Shown here: positions 11,710 to 34,082 of the stretch, piece by piece | Numbering within the stretch: position 1 is the first letter of the stretch | Layout: the number at the start of each line of letters is the position of its first letter | Source of the DNA: a virus | Lineage: Duplodnaviria > Heunggongvirae > Uroviricota > Caudoviricetes | IMG/VR virus record: IMGVR_UViG_3300045988_014597 | Span: 1 to 34,082 of that record | Direction: 5' to 3' (one strand) | Length of the DNA: 34,082 bases | Program-made: the position numbers and the translations under genes | Notes under the pieces: generated by a model | The model's database searches: none | What the model was told of the DNA's origin: nothing | What the model saw: only the letters and a program-made list of their open reading frames with translations

Positions 11710-11897
11710 TTCAACACCAGAACTAACTCTTTACGTCCAAACGCCGTAACGTTACCGGTTACATCTTCGATAACCAGTTTACCGTTCGACTCGACGTATA
11801 CCGTATCAACGGCAACAGGACGACGTGTCTTAACGTTGAAAATCATGTCACCCGGTACGATGTCACGTGCTGGTTTGCGGTCGTATTCGTGTTTCAT
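11706..11897 (-). CDS. Hypothetical protein, 63 aa
   Basis: ORF directly downstream of a family A promoter, AAGGA-type RBS; stop overlaps the next start. Confidence 0.5.
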   Translation of the reverse strand: MKHEYDRKPARDIVPGDMIFNVKTRRPVAVDTVYVESNGKLVIEDVTGNVTAFGRKELVLVLK

Positions 11898-11908
11898 TTC
11901 TCAATTCC

Positions 11909-12214
11909 TTATATTGTTGGTGTATGACTACTATAATAGTTCGCTATTAGGTCGTCAACCTGTTTAAACGACCCGACGACAAAAACATTTGCGCCACGTT
12001 TGCGCATACGCTCATGTTCCCTCAGCTGGTGAGGGTCTGGCTTCGTATTTTCGTCTTTCTTAACCTCGACGAACCAGACGATGCCTCCGGGGAGAATTAC
12101 CAGGAGGTCAGGGGCCCCCACTCTATTTTCGTACGACAATTTGCGTACGAGGCCACCGAGGGCCTCAAATCGCTCTTTTGCGTATTTCTGGATGCGCCCC
12201 TCAGGCGTACTCAT
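11909..12214 (-). CDS. VRR-NUC domain nuclease (PD-(D/E)xK), about 101 aa
   Basis: GAPDLLVILPGG...FVEVKK pattern. ATG at 12214 preferred over the upstream alternative start used by the ORF track. Confidence 0.65.
   Translation of the reverse strand: MSTPEGRIQKYAKERFEALGGLVRKLSYENRVGAPDLLVILPGGIVWFVEVKKDENTKPDPHQLREHERMRKRGANVFVVGSFKQVDDLIANYYSSHTPTI
11929..11957 (-). promoter_or_regulatory. Family A sigma70-like promoter (TTGACG-N17-TATAGT) with embedded palindrome AATAG-N4-CTATT
   Basis: Reverse strand reads TTGACGACCTAATAGCGAACTATTATAGT; -35 at 11952-11957, -10 at 11929-11934, palindrome at 11934-11947. Confidence 0.6.
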
Positions 12215-12300
12215 AATACGCACCCCTCACGTTTCGTATGTTCAATACCGCAGCGCGGACAGATTCGACAGTCTTCTTCGTAGAACCAGTAAATTTTCAT
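12211..12300 (-). CDS. Small zinc-ribbon-like protein, 29 aa
   Basis: MKIYWFYEEDCRICPRCGIEHTKREGCVL, with a CxxCxxC cluster; ATGA overlaps at both ends. Confidence 0.3.
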   Translation of the reverse strand: MKIYWFYEEDCRICPRCGIEHTKREGCVL

Positions 12301-12428
12301 TCCAGCACCCACAGATAAATTGCGATGAACATGCCCAATATGGCAACCATCATGCCGTATTGACCCTCGTGACAGTAGATACCGGCGGCGAATCCCGCCA
12401 GTACCGCGATAATCAGTTTACTTGGCAT
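12297..12428 (-). CDS. Small membrane protein, 43 aa, two predicted hydrophobic helices
   Basis: MPSKLIIAVLAGFAAGIYCHEGQYGMMVAILGMFIAIYLWVLE; start overlaps the 3' end of the polymerase gene. Confidence 0.3.
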   Translation of the reverse strand: MPSKLIIAVLAGFAAGIYCHEGQYGMMVAILGMFIAIYLWVLE

Positions 12429-14589
12429 AACGTTTTAACTCCTGACCTTCCGCTACAAGAGGGAAGCCTTCTGCCCACTCAGGTAATTCACACATCAACC
12501 GCTCAAGTTCAGCCACATTGTATTCCGGCGTATCTGGTGTCTCACAGATAATTTCGTCGTGTACGTGAAGCACAATCGGATAGCCGTTAGCTTCTACATT
12601 CAGCAGCGCATTAGCCAGCAAATCACGGCATAGCGCCTGAGTGCAGTTTTCCACCAGTTTACCAGAGTAGGTGTACTGGAAGCCCCACTGACGGGTTAAC
12701 TGGTTCTCCCCCTGGTACTTGATACGCACGTTAGTAGACACCTTTCCGTCTTCGTCTGTCTCTTTCGACACGCTTAACCCGACTCCGGGGTATGACATAA
12801 CACGACCTGACGGCAACGTCATGCGCAACCACCAGCCAGCGACTTTGTTGCCGTTGATGTCTGTCTCCACGTTGCGCGAAAACTTAACGCCGCGCGGCCC
12901 TGCGGTGAACTCTTTACCTGGATTGCGGATAGCTGCCATAGCCGCATCTTCAATATCTCGCCAGAATTGGACTATTGCAGGATTAGCTTCCCGGTACATG
13001 CGTTTTAAAGCGTCACAGGTACGCCACACTTTCTTATCCAGAATATACGACGGTCGGTCATCCTTTTCGCCGGGTCTCGGCGGTCTCTTGGCTTCCTGAA
13101 TGCGTGCCCACTCATATCCGCGTGCGGTAGCGGCCCAGATGTGGTCAGGGAATGACCTGTCTAAAGTGCGGGTCATATCATTCAAATCAAGACCTAAGTT
13201 TTTAGCAAACGTGACGAAAGCACCTACACCCCCCGCGTAGCCGAGGCCCAGAACCATTGCTTTGGCTATTTGTCTTTGGTCCTTTGTTACAGCCTCGTAC
13301 GCAACGTTGAACACAGTTGATGCGAGTTTCTTATACACATCAACCCCGTTTACAAATACTTCTATTAAATCGTCTTCACCAGCCAGCCACGCTAAACCAC
13401 GGCCTTCGACGTTCGAGTAGTCGGCGACGACAAACTTATGCCCCACTTCCGGTATGATGCAGCTTCGCACCGTCGATGCCGTTAGCTTGGCTACATCGAA
13501 ACGGCGATGTGCACGGCCTTTAAGTAACGCTGAAATGCCTTTATCCAGTTCATCATCATGATAGTACCCGCGCGACTGGTTATGCGGCTGGAAGCCTTTA
13601 CCCGCAAACCGTAATGTACGCTTGGCCCCGCCATACTGGATGCAACCGCGGCGTCGGTCGTCAGAAGAACGGCCCAACAACAGTGGTCTATATTTCGTTG
13701 ACGCGGTAGACGCGGCCCCGAGGCGCATTTCGATAATCGTGCGAGCGTCGTCCGGTAAATCATCATCCGCCAGCAGGTCGTTAAGCGTAGACTTCTGCGC
13801 ATTGTGGATGCGGTGCGCTGGCGCAAGTTCACGCAGAATCGGAAGGAAGTCTTTACCAGTCAGCGAGCCGCCGTATTTGCGTTGGGCTTCTTCCTGTAAC
13901 TGTGCCTTGTGCTTCTCCACGGCTTCAATCGCGGCTTCCGCCAGTGCGACGTCAACCTTAAACCCCCTGTCATTGATTAACTGATCCAGTTCCAGTACAC
14001 GGTCCTCGAACTCGGAGTTACCCCACCGCGGCAGCTTATGGAACACTTCACGCATCGCAGTGATGTCACTCACGGCGTACTTGATGAACAGCGCCCATTC
14101 TTCCGGGTGTGTGTCCGCGGTGTAGCGGCGGATTTTGTAGTTCTTCGGTGTCGGTTTAGAGAAACGCTGAATCAGCGCCTTGCCGCGTTTATCTTTTGCG
14201 TTGTCCGCGGATACGCCAAGCACTTCACACAGCGCATCGAGTGACCCCGGCAGCGCGTGACGAAACGCCCAAATCATCGTATCAATGGTGTTGCTTACCG
14301 GAATATCAAAGCCCCAGCAGCGCTTCATGATTAGCCTGTCGAACATTGAGCCGTTATGCCACACCATCTTAATGCGGCTGTTCGGCTTCACCAGGCGGCG
14401 TAGAGCGCGGTGCAAATCTCCTGGCATGTCGCTGCTGTCGGTGCAATCCCATACCCGCACAGGTTCGTCGTCGAAAGCATATGTACAGATAAGCACTTCG
14501 GTAGTCGGGTGTTCGGCATAAGCGTAGGAGCCGACTTTCTTTAAATCGGCCTCGGAGAATGTTTCAAAGTCTAAGAACAGGTAACTCAT
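12418..14589 (-). CDS. DNA polymerase, family A (Pol I-like) with 3'-5' exonuclease domain, 723 aa
   Basis: Exo motifs FLDFETFS and YAVSDI; polymerase motif A VVADYSNVEGR, motif B RQIAKAMVLGLGYAGG, motif C VLHVHDEI. Confidence 0.93.
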   Translation of the reverse strand: MSYLFLDFETFSEADLKKVGSYAYAEHPTTEVLICTYAFDDEPVRVWDCTDSSDMPGDLHRALRRLVKPNSRIKMVWHNGSMFDRLIMKRCWGFDIPVSNTIDTMIWAFRHALPGSLDALCEVLGVSADNAKDKRGKALIQRFSKPTPKNYKIRRYTADTHPEEWALFIKYAVSDITAMREVFHKLPRWGNSEFEDRVLELDQLINDRGFKVDVALAEAAIEAVEKHKAQLQEEAQRKYGGSLTGKDFLPILRELAPAHRIHNAQKSTLNDLLADDDLPDDARTIIEMRLGAASTASTKYRPLLLGRSSDDRRRGCIQYGGAKRTLRFAGKGFQPHNQSRGYYHDDELDKGISALLKGRAHRRFDVAKLTASTVRSCIIPEVGHKFVVADYSNVEGRGLAWLAGEDDLIEVFVNGVDVYKKLASTVFNVAYEAVTKDQRQIAKAMVLGLGYAGGVGAFVTFAKNLGLDLNDMTRTLDRSFPDHIWAATARGYEWARIQEAKRPPRPGEKDDRPSYILDKKVWRTCDALKRMYREANPAIVQFWRDIEDAAMAAIRNPGKEFTAGPRGVKFSRNVETDINGNKVAGWWLRMTLPSGRVMSYPGVGLSVSKETDEDGKVSTNVRIKYQGENQLTRQWGFQYTYSGKLVENCTQALCRDLLANALLNVEANGYPIVLHVHDEIICETPDTPEYNVAELERLMCELPEWAEGFPLVAEGQELKRYAK

Positions 14590-14605
14590 TATTTTCGACC
14601 CCTAG

Positions 14606-14630
14606 TAAAAAGGCCCAATGAAGGGCCTTA
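14606..14630 (-). terminator. Intrinsic terminator between the SSB-like gene and the polymerase gene
   Basis: AGGCCC-AATGAA-GGGCCT hairpin with an A-run on the + strand, giving a U-tract on the reverse-strand transcript. Confidence 0.5.
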
Positions 14631-14648
14631 GTTAAATTGATTCAGATA

Positions 14649-15275
14649 TTAACGGCGACGACGTTCGCGGCGCGGTGCTTCATCTTCTTCGTCGTCTTCC
14701 AGGTCATCGACGCTTGCAGCGACTTTAGAACCGCCGAATGCTTTACCTTCGCCAACATATTTAATCGCCAGCAGGTTAACGCCGAGGACTTTGTATTTCT
14801 GGCTGAACCAGATTTCGACGCTTACGTTAGCGACGCAGCCGCTGTAAACCTGTTCACCTTCAATCTGTTCACCGTCCACATTGAAGTCCTGCTCTACCTG
14901 AGTCTCGCCTTTTTTAGAGGTTACAATCAGCGGCTGTTTCTGTGCCTTCGCTTTGAAGTAGAAGCCTTCCGGGAAGTCTTCAAACGGATTGTCGCGCTCG
15001 GCAATGTCTTTAATCGCGCATTTATCCATATGCTTGCCTTCGCCGTAGTTGGACTTCATCCATTTCTCGGCAGCGGCTGCACCTAACGCCTCTTCAACTA
15101 CAGCATAAACCGTGTCGTAGAGTGCGTCGATTTGAGCATGGTCAGGCGGCAGGATAATAGTCGCGCTGTATTGACCTTTAGTGATTGAGCCATCGTCGTT
15201 TTCACGGTCTTTTTCGCGTTCAAATACGTTAACCCAAGCAGTGTTTACTTTACGCAGATTTAATTTCAGTCCCAC
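14649..15275 (-). CDS. Putative ssDNA-binding protein (SSB-like, DUF2815-like) with a charged C-terminal tail, 208 aa
   Basis: Acidic C-terminus (DDLEDDEEDEA) followed by an Arg run; neighbours a DUF2800-type nuclease and Pol A, a common phage replication trio. Function inferred. Confidence 0.45.
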   Translation of the reverse strand: MGLKLNLRKVNTAWVNVFEREKDRENDDGSITKGQYSATIILPPDHAQIDALYDTVYAVVEEALGAAAAEKWMKSNYGEGKHMDKCAIKDIAERDNPFEDFPEGFYFKAKAQKQPLIVTSKKGETQVEQDFNVDGEQIEGEQVYSGCVANVSVEIWFSQKYKVLGVNLLAIKYVGEGKAFGGSKVAASVDDLEDDEEDEAPRRERRRR

Positions 15276-15338
15276 AGTTCAGCCCTCATTAAGTTTAGAT
15301 TTTAAGTTTACTCCGGGAACTGCCCGGCCAGTGATTTA

Positions 15339-15368
15339 ACTATAATAGCTTACTATTCAGGTTGTCAA
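15339..15368 (-). promoter_or_regulatory. Family A sigma70-like promoter (TTGACA-N18-TATAGT) with embedded palindrome GAATAG-N4-CTATT
   Basis: Reverse strand reads TTGACAACCTGAATAGTAAGCTATTATAGT; palindrome at 15344-15357. A CCGGG-N5-CCCGG hairpin at 15313-15327 lies in the 5' leader. Confidence 0.6.
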
Positions 15369-15372
15369 CACT

Positions 15373-16629
15373 TTATTCCAAATCTTCTTCACTAACCTGA
15401 TTCCACTCAGGCCGTTTGTCGTCCGCCGTTGCGACGCACGGCGCACCGGGCTTACGGGTAATGAAGTCTTTAAGTTCTTCTTCCGGTATGACTTTAACCG
15501 CTTCGGTTGGCGTCATGAGGACTTCTTTAGTCAGCTTGTTGCCGTAGAGTTCTGCCACTTTCTCCGCGTCTTTCCACGCACGATTACCGGGACGACCTTC
15601 AACGAGTTTGTACCCTGGCACTTTCTTGCCGGAGTGCAACGCGGTGGCCATAGCTTTTTCAACCTTGTCTATGTGCTGGCGCAACAACGGCAACTTCTCA
15701 TACTCGGCTACGAGTTGCTCTGGTGTCAGTTCCAGCTCAAAGTCGTCCTCCAGTTCTTCCGCCAGTACAGAATTAACCGTCTTTGTACGCGCGGCGCACT
15801 GTTCCGAGAACCGACACCACTGACAACCATCGACCGACGGCTTGAAGTCCGACGCTTTCAGGTTCTTCTTACCCCGAAAATACGCATCAAGAGCTAACAG
15901 CGCGCGTTTCTGTGCAAACTTAGCGAACAGTTCCAGACCTTCAACCGAAATGTCCCACTCCGACGCACCGCCAGCATACGGCTGAAAGATGACCAGACGA
16001 ACAACCGTGATGTTATAACGTCTCTTGAGTCGGCGATAAACACCGAGAGCGTAAAGCATAAGCTGCTTGTTTTCTTTCGCTTCGACACGGTGTCGCCCAG
16101 TTTTCAGGTCGCCGATAATTAGCATGTGCTCGTCGGTGTTAGCCAGTTCCTGAACGGCAACAAGGTCAGCGGTTCCGAACGTCTCAACGCCTTCATATCC
16201 CGGATGCAATACCTCGGTAAGATTGACGCGCATTTCCAGCTTGGCGTAAGTCGCTACGTCGATAATCGCTTTGCAGTAGTCGGTGTACTTGCGCACCTGC
16301 TCAATCATGCCCGTCGTAATCAGTACCGCACCTTTCATCGGGCTGATTAGGGCCTTAATCTGGCCTTTACCCTCATCCAGCACGTAAGCACCGACTTCAC
16401 GCTCTAACGGCAACGCGGTGCCTTTGATGTACTGGTTTAAATGGACCTCGGCAATAGTGTGGCATGCGGTTCCTGTAACGGCAGATTTACCAGACGCGTT
16501 AGGAATATCTTTTTCACACGCCAGTGACGCAGCGCATGACAGCCACTTTTTAGCGCCTGACGGTGACAGTAAGGCGTGTACATCGTTATTTCCGCCGCGA
16601 TCCTTTAAAATCATACCCTGCTCTCCCAC
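15373..16629 (-). CDS. PD-(D/E)xK nuclease of the Cas4/RecB-like family (DUF2800-like), 418 aa
   Basis: GDLKTG and QLMLYALG motifs, plus a four-cysteine arrangement (one N-terminal Cys and a C-terminal CQWCRFSEQC cluster) typical of Fe-S Cas4/AddB-type nucleases. Confidence 0.7.
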   Translation of the reverse strand: MGEQGMILKDRGGNNDVHALLSPSGAKKWLSCAASLACEKDIPNASGKSAVTGTACHTIAEVHLNQYIKGTALPLEREVGAYVLDEGKGQIKALISPMKGAVLITTGMIEQVRKYTDYCKAIIDVATYAKLEMRVNLTEVLHPGYEGVETFGTADLVAVQELANTDEHMLIIGDLKTGRHRVEAKENKQLMLYALGVYRRLKRRYNITVVRLVIFQPYAGGASEWDISVEGLELFAKFAQKRALLALDAYFRGKKNLKASDFKPSVDGCQWCRFSEQCAARTKTVNSVLAEELEDDFELELTPEQLVAEYEKLPLLRQHIDKVEKAMATALHSGKKVPGYKLVEGRPGNRAWKDAEKVAELYGNKLTKEVLMTPTEAVKVIPEEELKDFITRKPGAPCVATADDKRPEWNQVSEEDLE

Positions 16630-16883
16630 TGGTCAATTAAATGTCGTGTCTTATGGTCGCAATGCATAGCCCACCCATACATCGACTCGAAGACATAAAA
16701 GTCAGGTTTTGCGAAAGTCGTGCGCTTAATCTGCGACACGTGACGGCCTATATCTTTAGGTCGTGGTACTTTGCCTAAGTAAGCCATCTCTTCCATCAGG
16801 TGCGCACCGGACGGCGCACGCAACAGCCATAGCGCCTCTGTGTTATCTCGCCTGTCTACGGCGCGGTAGAGTTGGTAAATCAT
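16611..16883 (-). CDS. Hypothetical protein, 90 aa
   Basis: ORF in the operon, overlapping the downstream gene start. Confidence 0.45.
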   Translation of the reverse strand: MIYQLYRAVDRRDNTEALWLLRAPSGAHLMEEMAYLGKVPRPKDIGRHVSQIKRTTFAKPDFYVFESMYGWAMHCDHKTRHLIDQWESRV

Positions 16884-16925
16884 TCGGCGTCCCTCAGTTA
16901 AAGCGGCCAGAAGGCCGCCGGATAA

Positions 16926-17396
16926 CTATTCTTCTTCGAAATACTTGTTCTTGATTGCTGTCAGGCGTTCCAGATATTCAGCCAGGTCTTCGTCTTTAAT
17001 CGCGGCAATCTTCATCTTCTTACCGGTGAACTCTTCCAGCAGTTCATCGGAATCATCGCACGCGGCATCGCTTGGACCTTCGTTAATTGCATCGTCGATA
17101 GCCTGAATCTGGTCACGAAGAGACTGGTAATCGACTTCTTCTTTCTCTTCTTCCGGCTCTGGCGCAGGTTCCTCTACTTTAGCTTTACGCGGCTTGCGTT
17201 TCGGCTTCTCATCTTCCGCCGGTTTAGTATCGACGATGTCTTCACCTTCGACCGGGATTTCTTTTGTTGCTTCTTTCGCAACGGTGGTCTCGATTGTTGC
17301 GGTTTCAGCAACGACAACCTGTTTTGCACTGTTCTCGGCAATCAGTTCATGGGCAACTACGAAACGTTCCAGTAATACTAAGAATTTCTCTAACAT
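16926..17396 (-). CDS. Acidic hypothetical protein, 156 aa
   Basis: Strongly acidic central and C-terminal regions (EPAPEPEEEKEE, DDSDELLEEF). Confidence 0.55.
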   Translation of the reverse strand: MLEKFLVLLERFVVAHELIAENSAKQVVVAETATIETTVAKEATKEIPVEGEDIVDTKPAEDEKPKRKPRKAKVEEPAPEPEEEKEEVDYQSLRDQIQAIDDAINEGPSDAACDDSDELLEEFTGKKMKIAAIKDEDLAEYLERLTAIKNKYFEEE

Positions 17397-17406
17397 TTGG
17401 TTCTCT

Positions 17407-17562
17407 CCTGTTTATTTATACTTAACGGTTTTAACTAACTGGCCTGTCGCTTTGTCGAAGAAGCCAACACGATTGTTGCTTACGCGATAGCGTGCGGTTT
17501 CTTTAGTTCCAAATGCTATATCAAGGCCCAACAGAATCTTTGCTTTGCGGTTATTGGTCATT
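17407..17562 (-). CDS. Small hypothetical protein, 51 aa
   Basis: Reverse-strand ORF with a GGAGAG RBS, directly downstream of a family A promoter. Too short for the ORF track. Confidence 0.4.
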
Positions 17563-17593
17563 TTGTTTCTCTCCTCTCGTTTGGTATGGGCTA

Positions 17594-17623
17594 ACTATAA
17601 TAGCAAACTATTCATGTTGTCAA
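17594..17623 (-). promoter_or_regulatory. Family A sigma70-like promoter (TTGACA-N18-TATAGT) with embedded palindrome (T)GAATAG-N4-CTATT
   Basis: Reverse strand reads TTGACAACATGAATAGTTTGCTATTATAGT; palindrome at 17599-17612. Divergent from the HTH gene promoter. Confidence 0.6.
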
Positions 17624-17627
17624 TGGG

Positions 17628-17657
17628 CTTTTCTAAAATAATTAATATGGTACTATT
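17628..17657 (+). promoter_or_regulatory. Putative promoter of the XRE gene, with a degenerate palindrome AATAT-N4-CTATT over the -10 (TACTAT)
   Basis: TACTATTCAC at 17651-17660 matches the family B -10 and leader; the -35 is weak (CTTTTC). Confidence 0.35.
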
Positions 17658-17687
17658 CACATATCGGCTAACTAAGGAGTAATTGAC

Positions 17688-17903
17688 ATGCAACCATCTG
17701 AACTAGGCATCCGTGTAGAACAACGCCGCAAAGAACTCGGCATCTCCCAGCGCCGTCTGGCCGTCCTGGCTGGCGTTTCCCAGGGCGCAATTAACCAGCT
17801 GGCACTTGGGGTAACTCAGGACGTCCGCCCGGCGACGCTGTTCAAACTGGCGGAAGTGCTGCAAGTAGACGCCAAGTGGCTGGCGTTAGGTGAAGGGGCT
17901 TAA
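17688..17903 (+). CDS. XRE-family helix-turn-helix transcriptional regulator (Cro/CI-like), 71 aa
   Basis: LGISQRRLAVLAGVSQGAINQLALG helix-turn-helix; AAGGAG RBS; sole + strand gene inside the reverse-strand replication module. Confidence 0.85.
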   Translation: MQPSELGIRVEQRRKELGISQRRLAVLAGVSQGAINQLALGVTQDVRPATLFKLAEVLQVDAKWLALGEGA

Positions 17904-17918
17904 TGCCCCTTTCTTTTT
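17894..17918 (+). terminator. Intrinsic terminator after the XRE gene
   Basis: AGGGGC-TTAAT-GCCCCT hairpin followed by a T-run; the stop codon lies in the loop. Confidence 0.65.
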
Positions 17919-17920
17919 AT

Positions 17921-20188
17921 CTATTCTAAATCCTCCTCTGTCACCACCAGCATTTCATTCGGTTCGTATATTGTCTTCGGTATTTTGTTGTCCGTTATCC
18001 GGGTGTTCAGCCTGTAACGGCCCGGTATTATCTGATTGTTTTCGTCTGTTCCAGGTACAAGATACCCGGCCTCAACCATTTTCTTAATCTTCCCGCGTTC
18101 TATGGCTTCTTTGGAGTTAAACGCCTTCGCGTTGGGGTCAGACTGTGCCAGCTTATTCGCTGCGGCCACCGTGATACCTTCGTTGCCGTTGTAGGTTCCT
18201 TCGGCCAGTTCAAACGCTGCCAGTATCGTGGCCTCCGAACTGTTGACAGCGTTCTCTACGGTTTTGCGTACGTTTTCTTTACCTTCCTTTGTCAGCCCTT
18301 CTTCGCGCTCTTTCTCCTCGTCAGTTTTGAACGGTTCGAAGCCCCACGGCATTAACACAAGTGCCTTATGTGGTTCTGGCAGGTCCAGGTTTACGATTGC
18401 GCCGTATTCCTCTGTGTTACCCAGGAACTCAACCGCGCGATACTCTTTCGGCGGCGGTGCTTCGCGGAACTGTACCGACTCCAGAACCATGCCAACCGTC
18501 TTCTGCTGAGGCCCGTGCTTAAATTTCGAGTGGTATACGTTTATCTGTCGGTCGGTGGCGCGTTCGATTGTTAGTTCGACGTCAACACCAGCATACAACG
18601 CCCCACTGCCACGGGCTTTCTTTCCGCCTTTCGGTGTGTGGTGAACAACGCCTACCGCGGCTTTAGTCGCATCGCGTACTTCTTTCAGGATGGCGATAAC
18701 TTTACCCATGCCGATTGCCGTCGATGAACTGTTCTCGTCGAACTTATCAATCGTCAGGGCCAACGTCTGGTTAAGGGTGTCGAACGCAACCATGCCGATT
18801 GGTTCATCGCCAGCGGTTTCGCGCATTAGCTTAATCAGGCTTTTAAGTTTGCCGACCTCACCCATGTCGATGACATGTACGTAATCTTTACCTTCCTCGC
18901 CGTATTTAGCCGCGAGCGCGTCAATACGTGTACGCGTAGCGGCACCGCCCTCGCCGTCGATATAGAAATGGTGGCAACGCTGGGTGTCCGCCCCCGCAAA
19001 CCGGTATCCGGCGGCGCTAAGGTACATCATCCCCAGCGTATAGAATGATTTGTACGTGCCGGATTCCCCGACGATATCCCAGATACAATCCGACGGCATG
19101 TACCCTTCGACGACGAAATCAGCCTTTACCGGTTCCGGTAATTCGTCCCCCTCTGAGTCCTCGTCGTCTTCCAGGTCGTCCAGGCTGCATGAGACGGATT
19201 CACGCGCGCCCCAACCGATGGCCTCCGCGACTTCACTGAACGGCAGCCCGGTCGCATCGCACGCATATTTCCACACCTCTTTCGGCGACATGCCTTCGGT
19301 AGCCGTAATGTCGGTGTCGTGAATCATGGTCACGTTCGGCGCTTCGTATCCTTCACGCGGGAAGCACAGCAGGAAGTCGTCCGGGCGCGGGGTCGGGTCG
19401 CTGTAGTTCTCTGCGTGTTCCGGTGTAGCTGGCATCTTAAGGCCGCGTGGCGTCATGATACCGCCGTACTCAAACGCCAGTGCCTCGAACGCATCAGTAA
19501 ACGCGGTGCGCAGTTCTTCCGGTATCTGGTAATCAGATGCGCTGCTCACCTCGTAATCCGGGATGCCTTCCAGTAATTCGTCCGGGTCAATCAGGTCATT
19601 GCGACGCGACCAGATAACGGTAGAGCCGACCGGCGGCAGGTACATCGGCTGTGACAGAGTGAACCCGCTGCGGTCCGCGCCCATGCCTTTGAAGAAGTGC
19701 TCCAGCAATCCGTGGCGGGCGCGGATGATGTCACCGCCTTCGACAGGGCGGCCCAGCGGCATGACGACGCGAAAGCGCGGGGACTCGTCGGTATGTGATG
19801 CCGTGGTATAGAGGCACATCGCACGGCGGCTACGCTTAACCAGGCGCACCGCTTCCTGGTACTCTTCCGGCGTTGCGCTGTCAAAGTCCAGATACGCCAG
19901 CGATGATTTACTTACAGACGCATCACAGCGGTAAAAGAAGCCTTTACGCGCTTGCTTAAAGTCTCCAGTTTCCGGGTCTTTTACGGTGCTGTGCGTAGAG
20001 TCGCACGCGGCGGTGATATAGCCGGGTGCGGTCTTAGGGTTAATCCCGTCGCGAACGGCATCGAGCGGCTGAATTAACTCTTTCAGGCCGTCCAGGGTTG
20101 CCGTATGGGTGGTTCTGACGTTTATATCCTTTTTCTCTGCCCGCGCGTTGCGGCGGGACCACGAGTAGGATAAAATTACATCGGACAT
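17921..20188 (-). CDS. Bifunctional DNA primase/helicase (AEP primase-polymerase N-domain plus RecA-like helicase), 755 aa
   Basis: AEP-like LAYLDFDSA (DxD) and CLYTTASH motifs N-terminally; Walker A GESGTYKSF and Walker B-like MVAFDTLNQ centrally. Confidence 0.8.
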   Translation of the reverse strand: MSDVILSYSWSRRNARAEKKDINVRTTHTATLDGLKELIQPLDAVRDGINPKTAPGYITAACDSTHSTVKDPETGDFKQARKGFFYRCDASVSKSSLAYLDFDSATPEEYQEAVRLVKRSRRAMCLYTTASHTDESPRFRVVMPLGRPVEGGDIIRARHGLLEHFFKGMGADRSGFTLSQPMYLPPVGSTVIWSRRNDLIDPDELLEGIPDYEVSSASDYQIPEELRTAFTDAFEALAFEYGGIMTPRGLKMPATPEHAENYSDPTPRPDDFLLCFPREGYEAPNVTMIHDTDITATEGMSPKEVWKYACDATGLPFSEVAEAIGWGARESVSCSLDDLEDDEDSEGDELPEPVKADFVVEGYMPSDCIWDIVGESGTYKSFYTLGMMYLSAAGYRFAGADTQRCHHFYIDGEGGAATRTRIDALAAKYGEEGKDYVHVIDMGEVGKLKSLIKLMRETAGDEPIGMVAFDTLNQTLALTIDKFDENSSSTAIGMGKVIAILKEVRDATKAAVGVVHHTPKGGKKARGSGALYAGVDVELTIERATDRQINVYHSKFKHGPQQKTVGMVLESVQFREAPPPKEYRAVEFLGNTEEYGAIVNLDLPEPHKALVLMPWGFEPFKTDEEKEREEGLTKEGKENVRKTVENAVNSSEATILAAFELAEGTYNGNEGITVAAANKLAQSDPNAKAFNSKEAIERGKIKKMVEAGYLVPGTDENNQIIPGRYRLNTRITDNKIPKTIYEPNEMLVVTEEDLE

Positions 20189-20245
20189 ATTATAATTCCT
20201 TCAGCAAGTAATTTGGCCTCGGCGCCCTAACGTCGGGGCTTTCTT

Positions 20246-20695
20246 TTATTCAGCGTTTGGTACTGCAAGAGCATACACGCCATCCAGCACCTTAATCAAC
20301 AAACCTTTTTTACAAAGCCCGCGCATGGCGGTACAGACATCACCAAGATTAGTGACATCATCTTTTACCATGGCGTATACCGCACTAGGCGTAAAACGTT
20401 GTCCTTGCTGTTCAAGACATTTTCCATAGACTAATTTTTGTAACTCCGTAAGTTGGCCCTTCTCGGGAAAAGGAACGGATATAACATTGGATGGTTTCCC
20501 ACCTTTAACCCAATACAGGTACTTACTCCCATCATAAACACGGTCTATCTCCCCGAAATACCCAAGCAATGAAATCGCGGCGCTAATTGGCCCGTCGAGT
20601 TCTATTGCAGATTTAATGTCATGCAGTGACGCTCCCGGGTTCTCGGCTAATATCATATTTAACGATTTAAGAAACTCGTCTAAGTATTTATGCAT
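20246..20695 (-). CDS. Hypothetical protein, 149 aa, possibly winged-helix DNA-binding
   Basis: Second gene of the reverse-strand operon; C-terminal region resembles a winged helix. Weak assignment. Confidence 0.55.
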   Translation of the reverse strand: MHKYLDEFLKSLNMILAENPGASLHDIKSAIELDGPISAAISLLGYFGEIDRVYDGSKYLYWVKGGKPSNVISVPFPEKGQLTELQKLVYGKCLEQQGQRFTPSAVYAMVKDDVTNLGDVCTAMRGLCKKGLLIKVLDGVYALAVPNAE

Positions 20696-20831
20696 TCTTC
20701 TTAGCCTCTCTTAATTGTTTGCGATATGCATTGAAACATTCACGGCAATAACTGCGTGTGCCTTTTCTGTCATATCGTTTGAGGAATGCACCTTCTTCTT
20801 TTTCTTTCCTACACATCTGGCAAATCTTCAT
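20688..20831 (-). CDS. Small zinc-ribbon protein, 47 aa
   Basis: MKICQMCRKEKEEGAFLKRYDRKGTRSYCRECFNAYRKQLREAKKNA with two CxxC pairs; strong GAGGAG RBS; stop overlaps the downstream ATG. Confidence 0.45.
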   Translation of the reverse strand: MKICQMCRKEKEEGAFLKRYDRKGTRSYCRECFNAYRKQLREAKKNA

Positions 20832-20926: not shown

Positions 20927-20955
20927 TTGACTTTTCACTGAAAATATGCTAAGCT
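20927..20955 (+). promoter_or_regulatory. Strong sigma70-like promoter with extended -10 (TTGACT-N17-TGC-TAAGCT), copy 1
   Basis: TTGACT at 20927-20932, TG at 20947-20948, TAAGCT at 20950-20955. Confidence 0.6.
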
Positions 20956-21037
20956 CCACCTGAGCTTGTGAAGTATGAACAAGCGACCGCGGTGCGGCAG
21001 GAGAACGGAGCGGTGCGTTAGCACTGAGTGTAGTGTC
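20927..21037 (+). repeat. Dispersed direct repeat R1 (promoter plus conserved leader), about 110 bp
   Basis: Aligns with 33971-34082. The first ~66 nt differ at 2 positions; the remainder has two single-base indels and more substitutions. Confidence 0.85.
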
Positions 21038-21155
21038 GCTGCCCGCATTCGGAAGGCCCATAGTCTATTGTTAATCCAGCCTAAATACCCAAGTCACTGA
21101 TAATTAAAAGTTTCTATAGTTGCCGTGAGCAATGTAGAGAGTACTTCACTCCGCT

Positions 21156-21177
21156 GGGGTGGGCTAACGCCCACCCC
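21156..21177 (+). other. GC-rich hairpin GGGGTGGGC-TAAC-GCCCACCCC
   Basis: Perfect 9 bp stem with a 4 nt loop. No immediate U-tract, so either a weak terminator or an RNA structural element downstream of R1. Confidence 0.4.
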
Positions 21178-21235
21178 CTGCGTTGCGTACTCTTTTAAGA
21201 AACGAAAGAATCACAACGGCAACGTAACTATTCTC

Positions 21236-21264
21236 TTGCACACCCCAACATAATAGGATACTAT
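21236..21264 (+). promoter_or_regulatory. Family B sigma70-like promoter (TTGCAC-N17-TACTAT) with embedded palindrome AATAG-N4-CTATT
   Basis: Palindrome at 21252-21265; the promoter, leader and start share about 63 of 66 positions with the reverse-strand copy near 33841-33904. Confidence 0.6.
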
Positions 21265-21298
21265 TCACTTATCGAAACGAGACATAAGGAATTTAGAA

Positions 21299-21517
21299 AT
21301 GAACAAAGCGACCGCAAGCGTAGTTTCCGCAATCAAAGAAGTTTACGGCATCGATATTTCAGAGCGCGTAATCATCGGTAATAAGCGCAACTTCTTTACG
21401 TTCGACACCGACGGAATGGATGAAAATGATTTTATCAACGTACAACGTTTCGCTAATGATAGAGGGCTTCGTAACGAGCCTGCAGGTTACAAGAAATTCG
21501 CTATCTACTTTAAATAA
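21299..21517 (+). CDS. Hypothetical protein, 72 aa
   Basis: First ORF after the family B promoter; AAGGA RBS. Confidence 0.6.
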   Translation: MNKATASVVSAIKEVYGIDISERVIIGNKRNFFTFDTDGMDENDFINVQRFANDRGLRNEPAGYKKFAIYFK

Positions 21518-24814: not shown

Positions 24815-25298
24815 TGGATTGCAGTTCAAAAAAGCGTGGGAGAAGTTCCGCGGAACCGCTTACAAAGCCACAAAGAACGAAAAATACTGGACTATAGGCT
24901 GGGGCCATACCGGGCCGGATGTGTATGAAGGTCAGAAGATTACCGAAGGCCAGGGGCTTCTGCTACTGAACCGTGATATGCGGTGGGCTGTGAAAGCAGT
25001 CGACGAGGTAGCACACCCCTCACTGACCCAGGCCCAGTTTGATGCTGTTGTTGACCTGGTGTTTAACGCAGGAACCGGCGTTATCGCGGCTACTACCGGA
25101 ACCGGTAAGGCGCTACGGCAGGGTGACATCCCTACCTTACGGCATAAGTTGGGTCAGTTCATCAACCAACGCAACCCGAAAACAGGTAAACTCGAGCCTG
25201 TTCTCGGCTTGCGCCGCCGTACTGCGGGACGACTGGCCCTGTTCGACGGTAAGCCGTGGCAGGAGGCTGAGGCTATCGGACGCGCGGTGAAAGGTTGA
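24792..25298 (+). CDS. Endolysin, GH24 lysozyme (T4 / P22 gp19-like), about 168 aa
   Basis: WEKFRGTAYKATKNEKYWTIGWGH matches the lysozyme catalytic region (Glu, then about 8 residues, then TIGxGH). GTG start at 24792 with a GGAGGG RBS preferred. Confidence 0.8.
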   Translation: MSRNISDNGLQFKKAWEKFRGTAYKATKNEKYWTIGWGHTGPDVYEGQKITEGQGLLLLNRDMRWAVKAVDEVAHPSLTQAQFDAVVDLVFNAGTGVIAATTGTGKALRQGDIPTLRHKLGQFINQRNPKTGKLEPVLGLRRRTAGRLALFDGKPWQEAEAIGRAVKG

Positions 25299-25364
25299 CA
25301 CCTGAGACTAATCCGACGATACTTAAATCACCTCCTGTTCCACACCTCTACTCTCCAGTTTTAT

Positions 25365-25394
25365 CCCGGCCCTGACCCAGCCGGGATTTTTTTA
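25365..25394 (+). terminator. Intrinsic terminator after the lysis cassette
   Basis: CCCGG...CCGGG hairpin followed by ATTTTTTTA. Confidence 0.6.
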
Positions 25395-25415
25395 TCTATT
25401 TTCTGCAATGACTAG

Positions 25416-25444
25416 TTGACTATTACCATCGACCCTATTATATT
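25416..25444 (+). promoter_or_regulatory. Sigma70-like promoter (TTGACT-N17-TATATT)
   Basis: Leader ATCGACAACGAGAAC resembles the family B leaders; a degenerate palindrome ACTAG-N4-CTATT overlaps the -35. Confidence 0.5.
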
Positions 25445-25479
25445 TACTCCATCGACAACGAGAACGGAGTAGAGAGAAA

Positions 25480-25629
25480 ATGAAAATCACAGATATCGAA
25501 GCATTCAAAGACGCGCAACTGATGGCACGCATCGCCGTCAGCAACCTGAGCAACAGCATTCCGGCGGAAGCGTTCTGGTTCGCCGCGATGCAGACACTTA
25601 AAGCAGCTTATGCAGGAGAGAAGAAATGA
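25480..25629 (+). CDS. Small hypothetical protein, 49 aa
   Basis: First ATG after the promoter; ATGA overlap with the next gene. Confidence 0.4.
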   Translation: MKITDIEAFKDAQLMARIAVSNLSNSIPAEAFWFAAMQTLKAAYAGEKK

Positions 25630-27306: not shown

Positions 27307-27401
27307 TGTACATCCTGCCCAATCCCCTTATATAATCCCTTTAGACGCGTAGGGCGCGTCTGGTGCGCTCTGATGATCAGACGCATATGCAAGGGGATTC
27401 T

Positions 27402-27947
27402 ATGAAGCTGAAACTTAAGCAGCCATCGCCAGAGGTGGTGCAAGCTGCACATGAAGAAGCTGTTAGCGCAAACCGTCGCCGTAAACGACCGCGCGGTAAA
27501 CAGAGCCTTTATCAATCGTCCCGTAACTCCGCTGCGCTGTGGGACCCGGACTATTGCGACGAATTGATTAGTTTCTTTGACCGCACGTCATGGGAACTTG
27601 TGCCCACGTCTAAGGGTGACGAACGTCCGCTGATTCAGGATAAGCCACCATCTCTGGCCCGCTTTGCCTTACACATCGGCGTCACTATCCCTATTATCAA
27701 GCTGTGGCTGCGTGAGATTCCCGCATTTGCAGAAGCCTGGGAGACCGCACAGGCGCTTGAAGAGGCGTACTTCACTGAGACCGGGGCCGCAGGCATCTCG
27801 GCTACGTTCGCTGCCGCGAAACTTGGCCTTGGCAAAGAGAAACCGGTTGAATCCACCGAAGAAACAGCACCAACCGAGATTATTTTTAGTGTTGCGGAGC
27901 CTGTAGGTAAAATCGTAACAACGAATATGGGCGAGGTAGAGGAATGA
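27402..27947 (+). CDS. Terminase small subunit, about 181 aa
   Basis: Immediately upstream of and overlapping the large terminase; basic N-terminal region. ATG at 27402 with an AAGGGGA RBS. Confidence 0.6.
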   Translation: MKLKLKQPSPEVVQAAHEEAVSANRRRKRPRGKQSLYQSSRNSAALWDPDYCDELISFFDRTSWELVPTSKGDERPLIQDKPPSLARFALHIGVTIPIIKLWLREIPAFAEAWETAQALEEAYFTETGAAGISATFAAAKLGLGKEKPVESTEETAPTEIIFSVAEPVGKIVTTNMGEVEE

Positions 27948-29194
27948 GTATTCAGCTATCCGCACCACAGGCACTGTTCCTGAATTGCGATAACAAATAC
28001 AAAGCCTATGTTGGAGGCTTCGGAAGCGGCAAGACATTTGTCGGCTGTCTGGACCTGCTTACGTTTATGCTCAAGCACCCCGGTACGCGCCTGGGCTACT
28101 TCGGCCCGACCTATCCCGCCATCCGTGACATCTTCTACCCAACATTCGAGGAAGCGGCTAACCTGCTCGGCCTTGATGTGCTGGTTAAATCCGGCGACAA
28201 AGAAGTCGTGGTTACTCGCGGTAAGACGGTGCTCGGGACCGTTATCTGCCGCTCTATGGATAACCCCGGCTCGATTGTGGGTTTCAAAATCGCCGCAGCA
28301 TGCGTGGATGAGCTGGACGTATTGAGTCGTGAGAAAGCTGAGCTGGCGTGGAACAAAATTGTGGCCCGTATGCGTCTGGTTATCCCAGGTGTAACTAACC
28401 ACATCTCCGTTACCACGACGCCGGAAGGGTTCAAGTTCGTCTACGCCAAGTTCAAGGAGAACCCGACACCGAGTTACTCGATGGTGCAGGCTTCCACACA
28501 TGAGAACGCGCGATTCCTGCCGCCGGATTACATTAGCTCGCTGACTGAGACTTACCCAGCACAGTTGATTAACGCGTATCTGAACGGTGAGTTCGTTAAC
28601 CTGACCTCCGGCAGCGTGTATTACGCATACGACCGCCGTAAGCACCGCAGCAAAGAGACAATTCAACCGGGAGACACTTTGTACATCGGGCAGGACTTCA
28701 ACGTTACGAAGAACGCCAGCGCTGTGTATGTGCAGCGTAAAGACGGCTGGCATGCGGTGGCTGAACTGAAAGGCCTGTTTGATACGCCAGACACCGTGCG
28801 CGTAATTACTGAGAAGTGGAAGTCACAAGGCCACCGCATCGTTGTTTACCCGGACGCCAGCGGCAAGAACCGCAAGACAAACTCGGCATCAATCTCAGAT
28901 ATTGCATTACTCCAGCAGGCCGGGTTCGATGTTCGCGCTAAATCCGCCAACCCCCCGGTTAAAGACCGTGTTTTAGCGGTGAATACCGCGCTGGAAAAAG
29001 GTAAGCTGTGGGTTAATGACCACCTATGTCCTGAGATAGCGAAGACGCTGGAGCAGCAGGCATACGACGATAACGGAGAGCCAGCTAAAGACGGCGTCAT
29101 TGACCATATGGCGGACGCTCTAGGCTATCCTGTAGTTTACGAGATGCCGGTGGTTAAACCAGTAATCAACATCCCGGTGACTTTCGCACTTTAA
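27944..29194 (+). CDS. Terminase large subunit, 416 aa
   Basis: Walker A GGFGSGKTF near the N-terminus; nuclease-sized C-terminal half; position before the portal gene. Confidence 0.9.
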   Translation: MSIQLSAPQALFLNCDNKYKAYVGGFGSGKTFVGCLDLLTFMLKHPGTRLGYFGPTYPAIRDIFYPTFEEAANLLGLDVLVKSGDKEVVVTRGKTVLGTVICRSMDNPGSIVGFKIAAACVDELDVLSREKAELAWNKIVARMRLVIPGVTNHISVTTTPEGFKFVYAKFKENPTPSYSMVQASTHENARFLPPDYISSLTETYPAQLINAYLNGEFVNLTSGSVYYAYDRRKHRSKETIQPGDTLYIGQDFNVTKNASAVYVQRKDGWHAVAELKGLFDTPDTVRVITEKWKSQGHRIVVYPDASGKNRKTNSASISDIALLQQAGFDVRAKSANPPVKDRVLAVNTALEKGKLWVNDHLCPEIAKTLEQQAYDDNGEPAKDGVIDHMADALGYPVVYEMPVVKPVINIPVTFAL

Positions 29195-29206: not shown

Positions 29207-30679
29207 ATGTTAACTATGAACGGTCAGAATCAGGGTGTTAAGACTAAACACCGGGAGTGGCTGCATCACTTCGATAAATGGCAGAAGGTGCGCCATGCGC
29301 TTGAGGGAGACCTTATTCGCTATCTTCGCAACGTCGGAAAGAATGAGCCGGACCCGACCTACGCAGCCCAGCGCCAGGAAGAATACGAGAACGGTGCTAT
29401 CTGTTACAACTTCACTAAACGTACCCTGGCGGGGATGGTGGGGTCGGTGATGCGCAAAGACCCTGAGCAGATTATTCCGCCTGAGCTTGAGTATCTGTTA
29501 CGCAACGCCGACGGTTCCGGTGTCGGGCTGTGGCAGCACGCGCAAGACACGCTGATGGAGATTGACTCGGTGGGCCGTGGCGGGTTGCTGGTGGACGCCC
29601 CGGAGACAGCTGCGGCAACGGCCGCCGAACAGAACGCGGGGTTATTAAACCCGACAATCGCATTCTATACCGCGGAGAACATCATCAACTGGCGACTAAC
29701 CCGCATCGGCTCCGTTAACCGTGTGACGATGGTCGTGTTACGTGAGGTGTGGGAATACTCAGAACCGGGCGCAGAGTTCGAAACAAAATTCGGTGAGCAA
29801 TACCGTGTCCTCGATTTAATTGACGGGCGCTACCGCCAGCGCATTTACCGCTTCGATGCAGAAGGTGGCGCACAGGGTGAAGTAAAAGAAATATTCCCGG
29901 AACTTGGCGAACAGTTGCGCGGTAGAATCCCGTTCACGTTCATTGGGGCGAGCAACAACGATGCGACCATCGATGACGCTCCTTTGCTGCCGTTGGCTGA
30001 ACTTAATATCGGGCACTTCCGTAACAGTGCGGACAATGAAGAATCCAGCTTCGTTGTAGGCCAGCCCACTCTGTTCATCGCCCCCGGCGAGAACATGAGT
30101 ACGGAACAGTGGAAAGAAGCCAACCCTCACGGCGTGCGCATGGGGTCGCGCTCAGGCCATAACATCGGGTATGGCGGTAATGCGTTTCTGGTTCAGGCAG
30201 AGGAGAACAACCTGGCCAAACAGAACATGCTGGATAAAGAGAATCAGGCCATCCAGATTGGCGCGCAGCTTATCACCCCGACGCAGCAAATAACCGCTGA
30301 ATCAGCCCGCCTGCAACGAGGCGCCGACACGTCCGTTATGGCAACAATCGCACGGAACGTAAGCATGGCATATACCGATGCGTTGCGCTGGGTTGCTGCG
30401 ATGCTAGGGTTGAGTGAAGGCACAGAGATTGAGTTCAAACTTAACATGGAGTTCTTCCTGCAACCGATGACCGCTCAGGACCGTGCTCAGTGGATGGCGG
30501 ATATTAACGCGGGCCTGCTACCGGCTACCGCTTACTATGCGGCATTGCGTAAGGCTGGCGTAACTGACTGGACGGACGAGGACATTCAGAACGCTATAGA
30601 GGACGCTCCGTTGCCGTTGGGCGCGGTTACTCAGGTGGCGGGGGAGATTCCTCAGTCGGCGCAGCATCAACAGGAGTAA
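29207..30679 (+). CDS. Portal protein, 490 aa
   Basis: Size and position immediately after the large terminase; acidic C-terminal region. Confidence 0.75.
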   Translation: MLTMNGQNQGVKTKHREWLHHFDKWQKVRHALEGDLIRYLRNVGKNEPDPTYAAQRQEEYENGAICYNFTKRTLAGMVGSVMRKDPEQIIPPELEYLLRNADGSGVGLWQHAQDTLMEIDSVGRGGLLVDAPETAAATAAEQNAGLLNPTIAFYTAENIINWRLTRIGSVNRVTMVVLREVWEYSEPGAEFETKFGEQYRVLDLIDGRYRQRIYRFDAEGGAQGEVKEIFPELGEQLRGRIPFTFIGASNNDATIDDAPLLPLAELNIGHFRNSADNEESSFVVGQPTLFIAPGENMSTEQWKEANPHGVRMGSRSGHNIGYGGNAFLVQAEENNLAKQNMLDKENQAIQIGAQLITPTQQITAESARLQRGADTSVMATIARNVSMAYTDALRWVAAMLGLSEGTEIEFKLNMEFFLQPMTAQDRAQWMADINAGLLPATAYYAALRKAGVTDWTDEDIQNAIEDAPLPLGAVTQVAGEIPQSAQHQQE

Positions 30680-31504: not shown

Positions 31505-31548
31505 ATATTATTTTTATGCGTTACACTGTCGATACTACAGGAGGGCCT

Positions 31549-33904: not shown

Positions 33905-33970
33905 ACTATTTATTTACCTATTCCAATTATCCCACTAAATTGTAAATGTTGGAATAAACTATTCGAATAG

Positions 33971-33999
33971 TTGACTTTTCACTAAAAATGTGCTAAGCT
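33971..33999 (+). promoter_or_regulatory. Strong sigma70-like promoter with extended -10 (TTGACT-N17-TGC-TAAGCT), copy 2
   Basis: Same architecture as 20927-20955; preceded by the perfect palindrome CTATTCGAATAG at 33959-33970. Confidence 0.6.
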
Positions 34000-34082
34000 C
34001 CACCTGAGCTTGTGAAGTATGAACAAGCGACCGCGGCGCGGGCAGGTAACGGAGCGGGACGTAAGTCCTGAGTGTAGTTACG
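33971..34082 (+). repeat. Dispersed direct repeat R2 (promoter plus conserved leader), truncated by the window end
   Basis: Aligns with 20927-21037. Confidence 0.85.

Follow-up and report, generated by a model that had tools for sequence, protein, structure and literature searches.

The window analysed here is a stretch of viral DNA of 34,082 nucleotides (IMG/VR record IMGVR_UViG_3300045988_014597, positions 1 to 34,082) in which a promoter and the beginning of its transcript occur twice in the same orientation, as copies R1 and R2. A BLAST search with the R1 region placed the window in the Kagunavirus/Jerseyvirus group (subfamily Guernseyvirinae), which here comprises K1G- and Jersey-like virulent siphophages with Escherichia and Salmonella as hosts; judged by its sequence, the window is a Kagunavirus, a K1G/Jersey-like siphophage. 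An earlier note, made from the window alone, had described the duplication as a promoter with a structured leader and compared it with the put RNA of phage HK022. By comparing related phages, we found that each copy is a sigma-70-type (host-type) promoter joined to a non-coding leader RNA of ~108 nucleotides (nt) that folds during its synthesis. The leader represents a real, well-supported and previously undescribed family of structured leader RNAs of the Guernseyvirinae, present twice in the lineage of the window.

The duplicated segment

The two copies and their immediate surroundings contain the following features, in which positions relative to transcription refer to inferred start sites.

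20927..20932, + strand: −35 hexamer of R1, TTGACT; the repeat starts exactly here, and the same hexamer heads the promoter-pattern copies (44 loci)
20947..20955, + strand: extended −10 of R1, TG-c-TAAGCT, with a 17-nt spacer (sequence; 3/6 to consensus)
20962..21070, + strand: core of the R1 leader RNA, type B (covariance model match 20961-21070, 119 bits, E 1.7e-31; predicted start ~20962)
20964..20984, + strand: P1, a 6-bp hairpin with a 9-nt loop at the 5' end of the transcript (folds and alignments)
20987..21052, + strand: P2, a long irregular hairpin consisting of P2a, P2b, a purine-rich internal loop and the apical P3 at 21011-21026 (folds and alignments)
21053..21070, + strand: conserved single-stranded tail, AAGGSCC...UAUUG (alignments)
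21093..21121, + strand: weaker second block of R1/R2 similarity, GTCACTGATAATTAAAAGTTTCTATAGTT against TTTACTGAGATTACGCCGTTTCTATGTTT in R2 of relatives (alignment)
21119..21223, + strand: structured block 3' of the R1 leader, with an outer helix GUUGCCG/CGGCAAC, a GC hairpin at 21156-21177 and a U-run at 21193-21196; terminator-like, non-canonical (fold)
33952..33972, no strand: dyad symmetries adjoining the R2 −35, GAATA-N3-TATTC with its centre near −48 and AACTATTCGAATAGTT, a perfect palindrome of 16 bp with its centre at −41.5, both counted from the predicted start (sequence)
33971..33999, + strand: R2 promoter, TTGACT, 17 nt, TG-c-TAAGCT (sequence and repeat search)
34006..34082, + strand: R2 leader RNA, type A, with P1 at 34008-34028 (covariance model match 34005-34082, 87.6 bits; 3' end cut by the window)

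A repeat search recovered the direct duplication of ~110 bp described in the earlier note as an ungapped match of 108 nt between 20927-21034 and 33971-34078, with 88% identity. Since such a match cannot be attained by chance in 34 kb, the repeat is real. Direct reading confirmed the positions of the promoter motifs (TTGACT at 20927-32 and 33971-76, the 17-nt spacer, TG at 20947-48 and TAAGCT at 20950-55), the identity of the two copies from the −10 through 20992, and the GCTTGT-N9-ACAAGC hairpin at 20964-84 and 34008-28. Further 3', the copies differ, as had been reported, by substitutions and two single-base indels, which are GCGG-CAGG versus GCGGGCAGG and GGAGAACGG versus GGT-AACGG.

Parts of this description needed revision. 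The promoter had been called near-consensus, which is true of the −35 (5/6), the spacer length and the TG extension but not of the −10, TAAGCT, which matches TATAAT at 3/6 positions; a consensus promoter scan of the window did not list the R1/R2 promoter. The equivalent of the R1 extended −10 in phage fBC-Eco01 (L001 3216-3244) matches the promoter pattern and is annotated 'predicted Host promoter1'. The extent of the element had also been underestimated: the repeat stands, but the conserved unit is longer than claimed and reaches 21070. R2 is cut off by the end of the window at model position 78 of 109. Type C and type E contexts do not preserve the 21093-21121 block, and its R2 version in fBC-Eco01 is annotated 'predicted Host promoter2'.

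Fold and covariation of the leader RNA

Copies of the element were collected by exact-pattern scans of IMG/VR, one metagenome scan and from phage records, which yielded >100 copies, and a covariance model was built from 25 variants. The architecture consists of P1 at the extreme 5' end, a linker of 1-2 nt, the long hairpin P2a/P2b/P3 and the single-stranded tail; the R1 leader core folds as P1 followed by the long hairpin. When folded independently, types A, A', B, C, D and E1 each gave this same architecture, and the minimum-energy folds of types E2 and E3 deviated from it. A structured leader, as proposed in the earlier note, is real, but that note had only the small P1, whereas most of the conserved, covarying structure lies in the long hairpin P2.

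P1 has 5-8 bp across types and begins 4-8 nt past the −10 hexamer, at ~+1 to +3 of the predicted transcript. Its loop is not kept across types (D and E differ), and its stem changes to nothing but G.U within types A-D and has three pairs altered on both sides in type E. P2a, the base of P2, runs C-G, C-G, G-C, a bulged C, G.U, G.U, N-N', G-C, C-G, G-C, and together with the tail it forms the near-invariant part of the element, ACCG-C-GGNGCG ... CGCN'UU-CGG-AAGGG ... UAUUG. The N-N' pair occurs as C-G, U-A and A-U, the three states of pair 33:95 in alignment A2. The middle helix, P2b, is variable in sequence and bulge position. The internal loop is asymmetric and purine-rich, and its 3' strand is AGYGUA in types A, B, D and E. 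P3 occurs as five different stems (GGGAC/GUCCU, CGGAC/GUCCG, GGUGC/GCACU, CACG/CGUG and GUGCC/GGCAC) and additionally as GGGCG/CGCCC in type E. The tail follows the pattern AAGGG-N7-9-UAUUG, with AAGGG and UAUUG kept in types A-E and the middle bases variable; exceptions are AAGGC in the R1 of the window and single-base variants in a few copies. The leader core is G-rich (39 G versus 23 C).

Compensatory changes keep this fold across six types (A, A', B, C, D and E). In the model-guided alignment of types A-D, 95.3% of the cells were standard pairs, compared with 32-40% when the 3' partners were slid by 1-3 columns; five pairs were altered on both sides, and the covariation score was 0.174 versus 0.066 ± 0.007 in shuffles, none of which (0/500) reached it. 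For P1 and P2a across types A-E, 99.9% were paired versus 29-38% in the slid controls, with four doubly changed pairs, three in P1 plus the N-N' pair of P2a. With few independent lineages and alignments fitted to the model, these pairing counts show a conserved fold rather than statistical proof of each pair. Of the 15 sites that vary within type A, 11 are unpaired. Only in the + strand RNA can the tandem G.U pairs, which are invariant, and the shifts of P1 pairs from A-U to G.U be accommodated, which places the structure on that strand. The covariance model and the alignments of types A-E show that related phages keep the leader structure and not the promoter hexamers alone; conservation restricted to the hexamers, which the earlier note had said would refute its proposal, was not what we found. 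A full-length fold suggested that the P1 loop (AGUAUG) might pair with the tail (CAUACU) as a pseudoknot or closing helix. This pairing was rejected, as it is broken by the commonest tail variants (CAUAGU and CAAAGU) and by loop variants and is not present in types D and E.

Coding potential of the leader

The earlier note had rejected a coding function on the grounds that the indels break the ATG-initiated frame of R1 in R2. The two visible indels are +1 and −1 and lie 7 nt apart, so the frame is restored rather than broken; the R2 frame shifts only at a third indel, past the end of the window. The non-coding conclusion nevertheless holds on other grounds: no reading frame is conserved across types, and conservation is thus at the level of the RNA and not of a protein. 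The chance that the element encodes a small protein of 36-41 amino acids (aa) from the ATG in the P1 loop, as annotated under 'hypothetical protein' in several records, appears negligible. This open reading frame (ORF) has 41 aa in R1 (20975-21100) and 36 aa in the type A R2 of relatives, and it is annotated in Bas72, fBC-Eco01 and others. Type D, however, lacks the ATG, the type A variant L045 has GTG instead, the frame has only 9 codons in A' and 19-22 in C, and near the 5' end of the type E RNA no ORF begins with ATG. Although conserved, the block TTCGGAAGG falls in different frames among types, and the variable sites of type A are distributed 7:3:3 over codon positions 1:2:3, with no third-position excess. 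As the earlier note had observed, there is no good Shine-Dalgarno sequence before this ATG; none is present, and the ATG is buried in a hairpin loop. The 'hypothetical protein' annotations across the leader are most likely wrong.

Distribution and ancestry

Searching phage genomes for the core, as the earlier note had proposed, we found types A-D in 181 GenBank phage records, 43 of them with the element in two places, and the divergent type E in 269 Salmonella phage records. Because ~450 records thus contain the leader and ~460 records contain a capsid protein ≥90% identical to that of K1G, the element is close to universal in the subfamily. Five further capsid relatives have 60-90% identity. 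The covariance model detected exactly two copies in the window and in its closest genome, PV845598, and one copy each in K1G and Jersey. A type E copy is also located between ORFs p21 and p11.5 in the MB78 'late gene' fragment X87092 from the 1990s (L139, 830-1060), where it is unannotated; older work on MB78 late transcription may therefore bear on the leader.

Outside this phage group, the element was essentially absent from the collections scanned. A strict motif scan of metagenomes found only phage contigs of ~40-45 kb from the same group. A looser scan of 100,044 bacterial genomes gave 24 matches, about the number that we estimated for chance, and only one of these, L104, probably a mis-binned phage contig, scored with the covariance model. 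Host origin or mimicry was rejected, with no match among 5,426 E. coli genomes.

The R2 site, between the Hoc-like gene and the operon for the Rz spanin, scaffold and capsid, is occupied in about 450 phage records, and in every genome examined for the order Hoc-like gene, element, hairpin and spanin it was filled, by type A/A' or E. The R1 site is filled in a subset only, by types B, C or D. At the R1 site, K1G has an unrelated consensus promoter (TTGACA-17-TAAAAT) and an unrelated leader, and it shares with the window the sequence past the R1 promoter and leader (equivalent to window 21093 onward). Of the two copies, the ancestral one is R2; R1, at the early-right promoter, is secondary.

In all 16 of the 16 two-copy IMG/VR contigs, the copies were of different sequence types. 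Genomes with two copies (L010/L011, L012/L013, L014, L015/L016, L025, L039/L056, L075/L076 and others) combine A+B, A+C or A+D, with compensatory differences between the copies. The differing types within one genome may reflect selection against recombination between direct repeats 13 kb apart. Exchange between copies was observed in L039, whose R2 site has a type B core, and in one metagenome genome (L075/L076) with the loop variant GAGGUAUGA in both copies.

Genomic context of the two copies

The gene order of the window was derived from ORFs, PHROG matches and the K1G annotation.

131-9255, + strand: tail genes
9609-20831, − strand: replication genes
27363-29194, + strand: terminase
29207-30679, + strand: portal
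33066-33841, − strand: small gene cassette between the Hoc-like gene and R2

R1 is followed on the + strand by small early genes, the holin, the endolysin, more small genes and the terminase. After the portal come a − strand methyltransferase and then, at 31492-33053, the genes for head morphogenesis and Hoc-like proteins. Complete relatives have, after R2, a GC hairpin, the Rz/Rz1 spanins, the scaffold, the major capsid protein and the remaining virion genes.

R2 always lies 3' of a bidirectional terminator that closes the Hoc-like gene (window 33057-33077; K1G 4324-4341), and no promoter was found between the R2 hairpin and the first late gene. Because of this upstream terminator, R2 appears to be the only evident promoter for the late operon. 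The dyads adjoining the R2 −35, of which Jersey has GAATA-CTT-TATTC at the same distance from the promoter (L126 about 7245-7258), are both missing from R1. Their sequence and their restriction to R2 suggest a regulator-controlled late promoter; the promoter may be under control while the leader is common to both copies.

All R2 loci contain a promoter-proximal GC hairpin ~25 nt upstream of the spanin start, with the ribosome-binding site (RBS) alone in between. It is terminator-like in Kagunaviruses, where the fBC-Eco01 record lists it as a terminator and the K1G copy (4619-4638) received a terminator score, and lacks a U-run in Jerseyviruses. Further + strand terminators occur within the late region (K1G 7010-7031, 12303-12322 and 15442-15465; window 683-706); they follow the capsid gene, close the first block and interrupt the frameshift region of the tail chaperone. 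The hairpins downstream of the leader would, we infer, terminate transcription. Among the internal terminators, the one at window 683-706 (+), equivalent to L003 15442-15465, is a very strong canonical intrinsic terminator of nine G-C pairs followed by TTTTT; as it lies in the frameshift region of the tail assembly chaperone, before the tape measure gene, expression of the tail genes requires polymerase to read through it.

From the −35 to the pre-spanin hairpin, R2 has a mean pairwise identity of 93-98% over 34 distinct loci; the flanking spanin and scaffold coding sequences have 80-94%, and the region upstream of R2 is highly variable. A spacer of 70-90 nt separates the leader core from the hairpin. 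The cassette from the −35 to about +108 is found before three unrelated downstream hairpins, which fits an action independent of the terminator and argues against an attenuator. At R1, the structured block at 21119-21223, which is conserved and fills the interval from the leader to the next promoter, may be a terminator, an insulator or another RNA element; it also occurs in K1G behind an unrelated promoter (L003 36925-37030), and in type C genomes its outer helix is kept and its interior replaced. The leader of the tail operon (window 36-133) was considered as a diverged paralogue and rejected, with a model score of −1 bits and a fold z-score of −0.26.

Other promoters and genes near the two copies were also observed. 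The motif GAATAGTAnCCTATTAT has seven copies, at 15342, 17597, 17642, 21250 and 22516 (−) and at 31474 and 33874 (+), with 0.02 expected by chance. Every copy sits in a TTGCAC-N17-TACTAT-like promoter with a conserved 5' untranslated region (UTR); a repeat search showed 21236-21302 and 33838-33904 to be 96% complementary. The palindrome inside these promoters looks operator-like, and no RNA polymerase gene was noticed in the phage. These promoters are the PHIRE-predicted 'phage promoters' of fBC-Eco01 (PMC9825357). The gap 3' of the endolysin gene, 25295-25481 (+), contains a cluster of good sigma-70-like promoters (TTGACA-17-GATACT, TTGACT-17-TATATT) without an R-type leader, an extra transcription start within the rightward gene block. 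Adjoining R1, the first gene of the leftward operon is a 47-aa CxxC...CxxC zinc-ribbon ORF (window 20688-20831, −), with weak PHROG matches to HNH, EndoVII and Lar-like N-termini; its position is taken in K1G and Jersey by an AlpA/excisionase-like helix-turn-helix (HTH) gene.

Discussion

We tentatively favour, by analogy with known systems, a leader that acts in cis on the transcribing RNA polymerase as a put-like processive antiterminator, with or without a factor. The HK022 put RNA works on this principle without a factor and nut sites work with one. The nascent leader would stay on the polymerase that made it, or load a factor onto it, and the modified polymerase would resist pausing and termination. 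Transcription from these promoters, of which R2 would drive the late operon, could then pass the GC hairpin or terminator that lies before the first gene and also internal terminators, for example that following the major capsid gene; a plausible contact surface is formed by the P2a base and the tail, both invariant. This reading is based on the position of the leader at the 5' end of the transcript, its linkage to a promoter, its placement before hairpins and long operons with internal terminators, its portability, the invariance of its helix base and tail, and the absence of any antiterminator protein that could be recognised. None of 30 ORFs (22 of them in the early region or flanking R1/R2) matched a Q or N antiterminator family when all were scanned against PHROGs and ten against Pfam; most of the small ORFs scanned matched families of unknown function only, or nothing. 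N proteins are poorly conserved and hard to recognise.

Several observations weigh against antitermination. The Jerseyvirus hairpin, GCCCGGC-UUAC-GCCGGGC followed by UUAGCGUAU, has no U-run, and the structure downstream of R1 is complex, which indicates that read-through of a terminator next to the leader is not a universal requirement. R1 is dispensed with in some lineages, and K1G-like and Jersey-like phages transcribe the early-right operon from a promoter and leader unrelated to it. A separate promoter region lacking the leader serves the tail operon, which nevertheless holds a strong terminator. Moreover, a constitutive antiterminator directly before a terminator would provide no obvious regulation.

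The closest known system in working principle and layout is put, a factor-independent RNA of ~74 nt with two stem-loops, of which putL starts at +3, that binds the zinc-binding domain of the beta' subunit (PMC9378689). The resemblance suggested in the earlier note holds for position and outline, both being like those of putL, but not for sequence or covariance-model similarity. Like put, the leader lies in the nascent transcript just behind a sigma-70 promoter (at about +1 to +3 of the predicted transcript), consists of two adjoining stem-loops with bulges and internal loops (P1 and P2, both with covariation support), occurs in the lineage of the window as two copies per genome behind two different promoters, and is followed by terminators and long operons in a phage without recognisable N or Q. 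Unlike put, it has ~108 nt, its P1 is a short simple hairpin whereas stem I of put contains a triplex, it belongs to virulent siphophages and is located at the late operon rather than at early operons, and its second copy is not universal. Contact with polymerase is a property of put; for the Guernseyvirinae leader, both activity and contact are conjecture by analogy. Homology was rejected: with filters off, the covariance model yielded nothing but noise in the immunity region of HK022 (best 3.8 bits, E 6.7), and local alignments of types A-E to putL, located via a published primer, were matched by 25-234 of 500 shuffles.

The lambdoid nut/N system is likewise based on a cis RNA site that occurs twice per genome behind two promoters, and P3 of type A, with its GUAA loop, is like boxB a small hairpin with a GNRA-like loop. 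In contrast to nut, however, conservation is lowest in the loop and stem of P3, and the element is far larger. The best strings for boxA (CGCUCUUA / GCUCUUUAACAA) have 2-5 mismatches at non-homologous positions in three leader types, none of them conserved, and the best matches to the RfaH ops element (GGCGGTAGnnTG) have 2-4 mismatches and are not conserved between types. A search of Rfam 15 gave no gathering-level match in the window and chance-level matches only around R1, R2 (in Bas72) and the Jersey copy. The window has neither tRNA nor tmRNA genes. In the literature on Kagunavirus and Jerseyvirus transcription, MB78 promoters and antitermination RNA elements, we found no description of the leader.

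Other functions of a conserved RNA were weighed against the same data. P1 might shield the mRNA from 5'-end-dependent decay, and the irregular ~28-bp P2 might be an RNase III signal comparable to the R sites of T7, trimming the leader and setting the stability or translation of the downstream message. We consider this unlikely, even though P1 lies at +1 to +3 in every type with its sequence and loop free to vary, as for a purely structural 5' cap hairpin, and the G-richness of the core is unfavourable to Rho loading. Phage RNase III sites are familiar from T7 and from the lambda N leader, and the long P2 with its asymmetric internal loop resembles them: like the T7-type signals, it is an irregular hairpin of ~25-30 bp that is repeated in the genome, in a polymerase II-independent, host-transcribed phage mRNA. 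Such sites need little primary sequence, yet here the types have replaced every other helix and kept nearly unchanged the P2a base, with its bulged C and tandem G.U pairs, and the tail motifs. Unlike the T7-type signals, the leader also has a fixed link to a promoter and a 5'-terminal hairpin, and a role in processing leaves the tie of the cassette to its own promoter unexplained. It is similarly improbable that the promoter, the 108-nt core, the spacer and the terminator produce an abundant, trans-acting small RNA of ~190-235 nt, a regulator, sponge or anti-defence decoy that binds host or phage RNA or protein. The combination of promoter, conserved core and exchangeable terminator hairpins is cassette-like, the R2 unit of K1G closes with a scored terminator, the strong conservation of the entire R2 unit includes the spacer, and the loop variant common to both copies of one genome (L075/L076) suggests concerted evolution. 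The same R2 is, however, the sole promoter-like element before the late operon, with its hairpin 25 nt from the spanin, and its isolation as a separate unit would leave the late genes promoterless. The Jerseyvirus hairpins, without a U-run, also argue against a separate small RNA, as do the lack of a complementary target of ≥12 nt within the window, the lack of a host match, and candidate seeds (the P1 and P3 loops) that differ between types, even in one genome.

A sensor or attenuator, in which the leader would bind a ligand or protein and so decide whether the downstream hairpin forms, whether riboswitch-like or protein-mediated, is very unlikely. An aptamer-like conserved fold upstream of a hairpin and RBS and the conserved purine-rich internal loop would suit it, but the core and the hairpin are separated by the 70-90 nt spacer, the same core precedes three unrelated hairpins without core-hairpin co-variation, no alternative pairing is convincing, and no Rfam match supports it. 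The only pairing between leader and hairpin that could be proposed at R2 has 5 bp, and the R1 hairpins differ; this candidate was rejected. Least probable among these functions is a DNA-level site, either a loading site of the lambda Q type, with a binding element and a sigma-dependent pause, or an origin or primer-forming transcript. The arrangement at R2 of a promoter, an untranslated leader of ~190 nt, a hairpin or terminator and then the lysis and structural late genes does mirror lambda PR'-qut-6S RNA-tR', an inverted repeat (AAGCTC-N5-GAGCTT) spans −10 to +8, and the RNA is G-rich. In lambda, however, Q works via DNA together with a sigma-dependent pause, and the leader RNA lacks a conserved fold, whereas the fold here covaries; the strand-specific G.U pairs and compensatory changes indicate pairing of RNA. 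No −10-like pause element is conserved, as AAGTAT, present in the P1 loop in types A-C, gives way to GAGATATC in D and to TTC in E. No Q family protein was found among the ORFs scanned, and R2 lies amid head genes, an odd place for an origin.

A stronger version of put-like antitermination, also drawn by analogy, is rather doubtful: that the leader is a second family of autonomous antiterminator RNAs, evolutionarily unrelated to put and functionally like it, which virulent Guernseyvirinae of Escherichia and Salmonella would use to drive their ~20-kb late operon, relying on the host RNA polymerase in unmodified form and on no antiterminator protein of the phage. The surface in contact with polymerase would then be the invariant P2a base and tail, and the cassette would be movable to other promoters, as at R1. 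To our knowledge, processive antitermination by RNA only is confined to essentially one phage group (HK022 put), plus the EAR-type leaders of bacteria. If the leader does act in this way, an unrelated RNA with a put-like job in about 450 virulent phages would mean that this solution evolved more than once, and it would provide a second natural RNA with which to study how a nascent transcript reprograms E. coli RNA polymerase. The finding defines a late promoter and leader for a subfamily whose transcription programme is undescribed, and it corrects the annotation of many records with a 'hypothetical protein' over the leader; many of the phages that bear it were isolated for therapy or biocontrol. 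Even if the leader turns out to be a processing element or a small RNA, it constitutes a well-supported new family of structured RNA.

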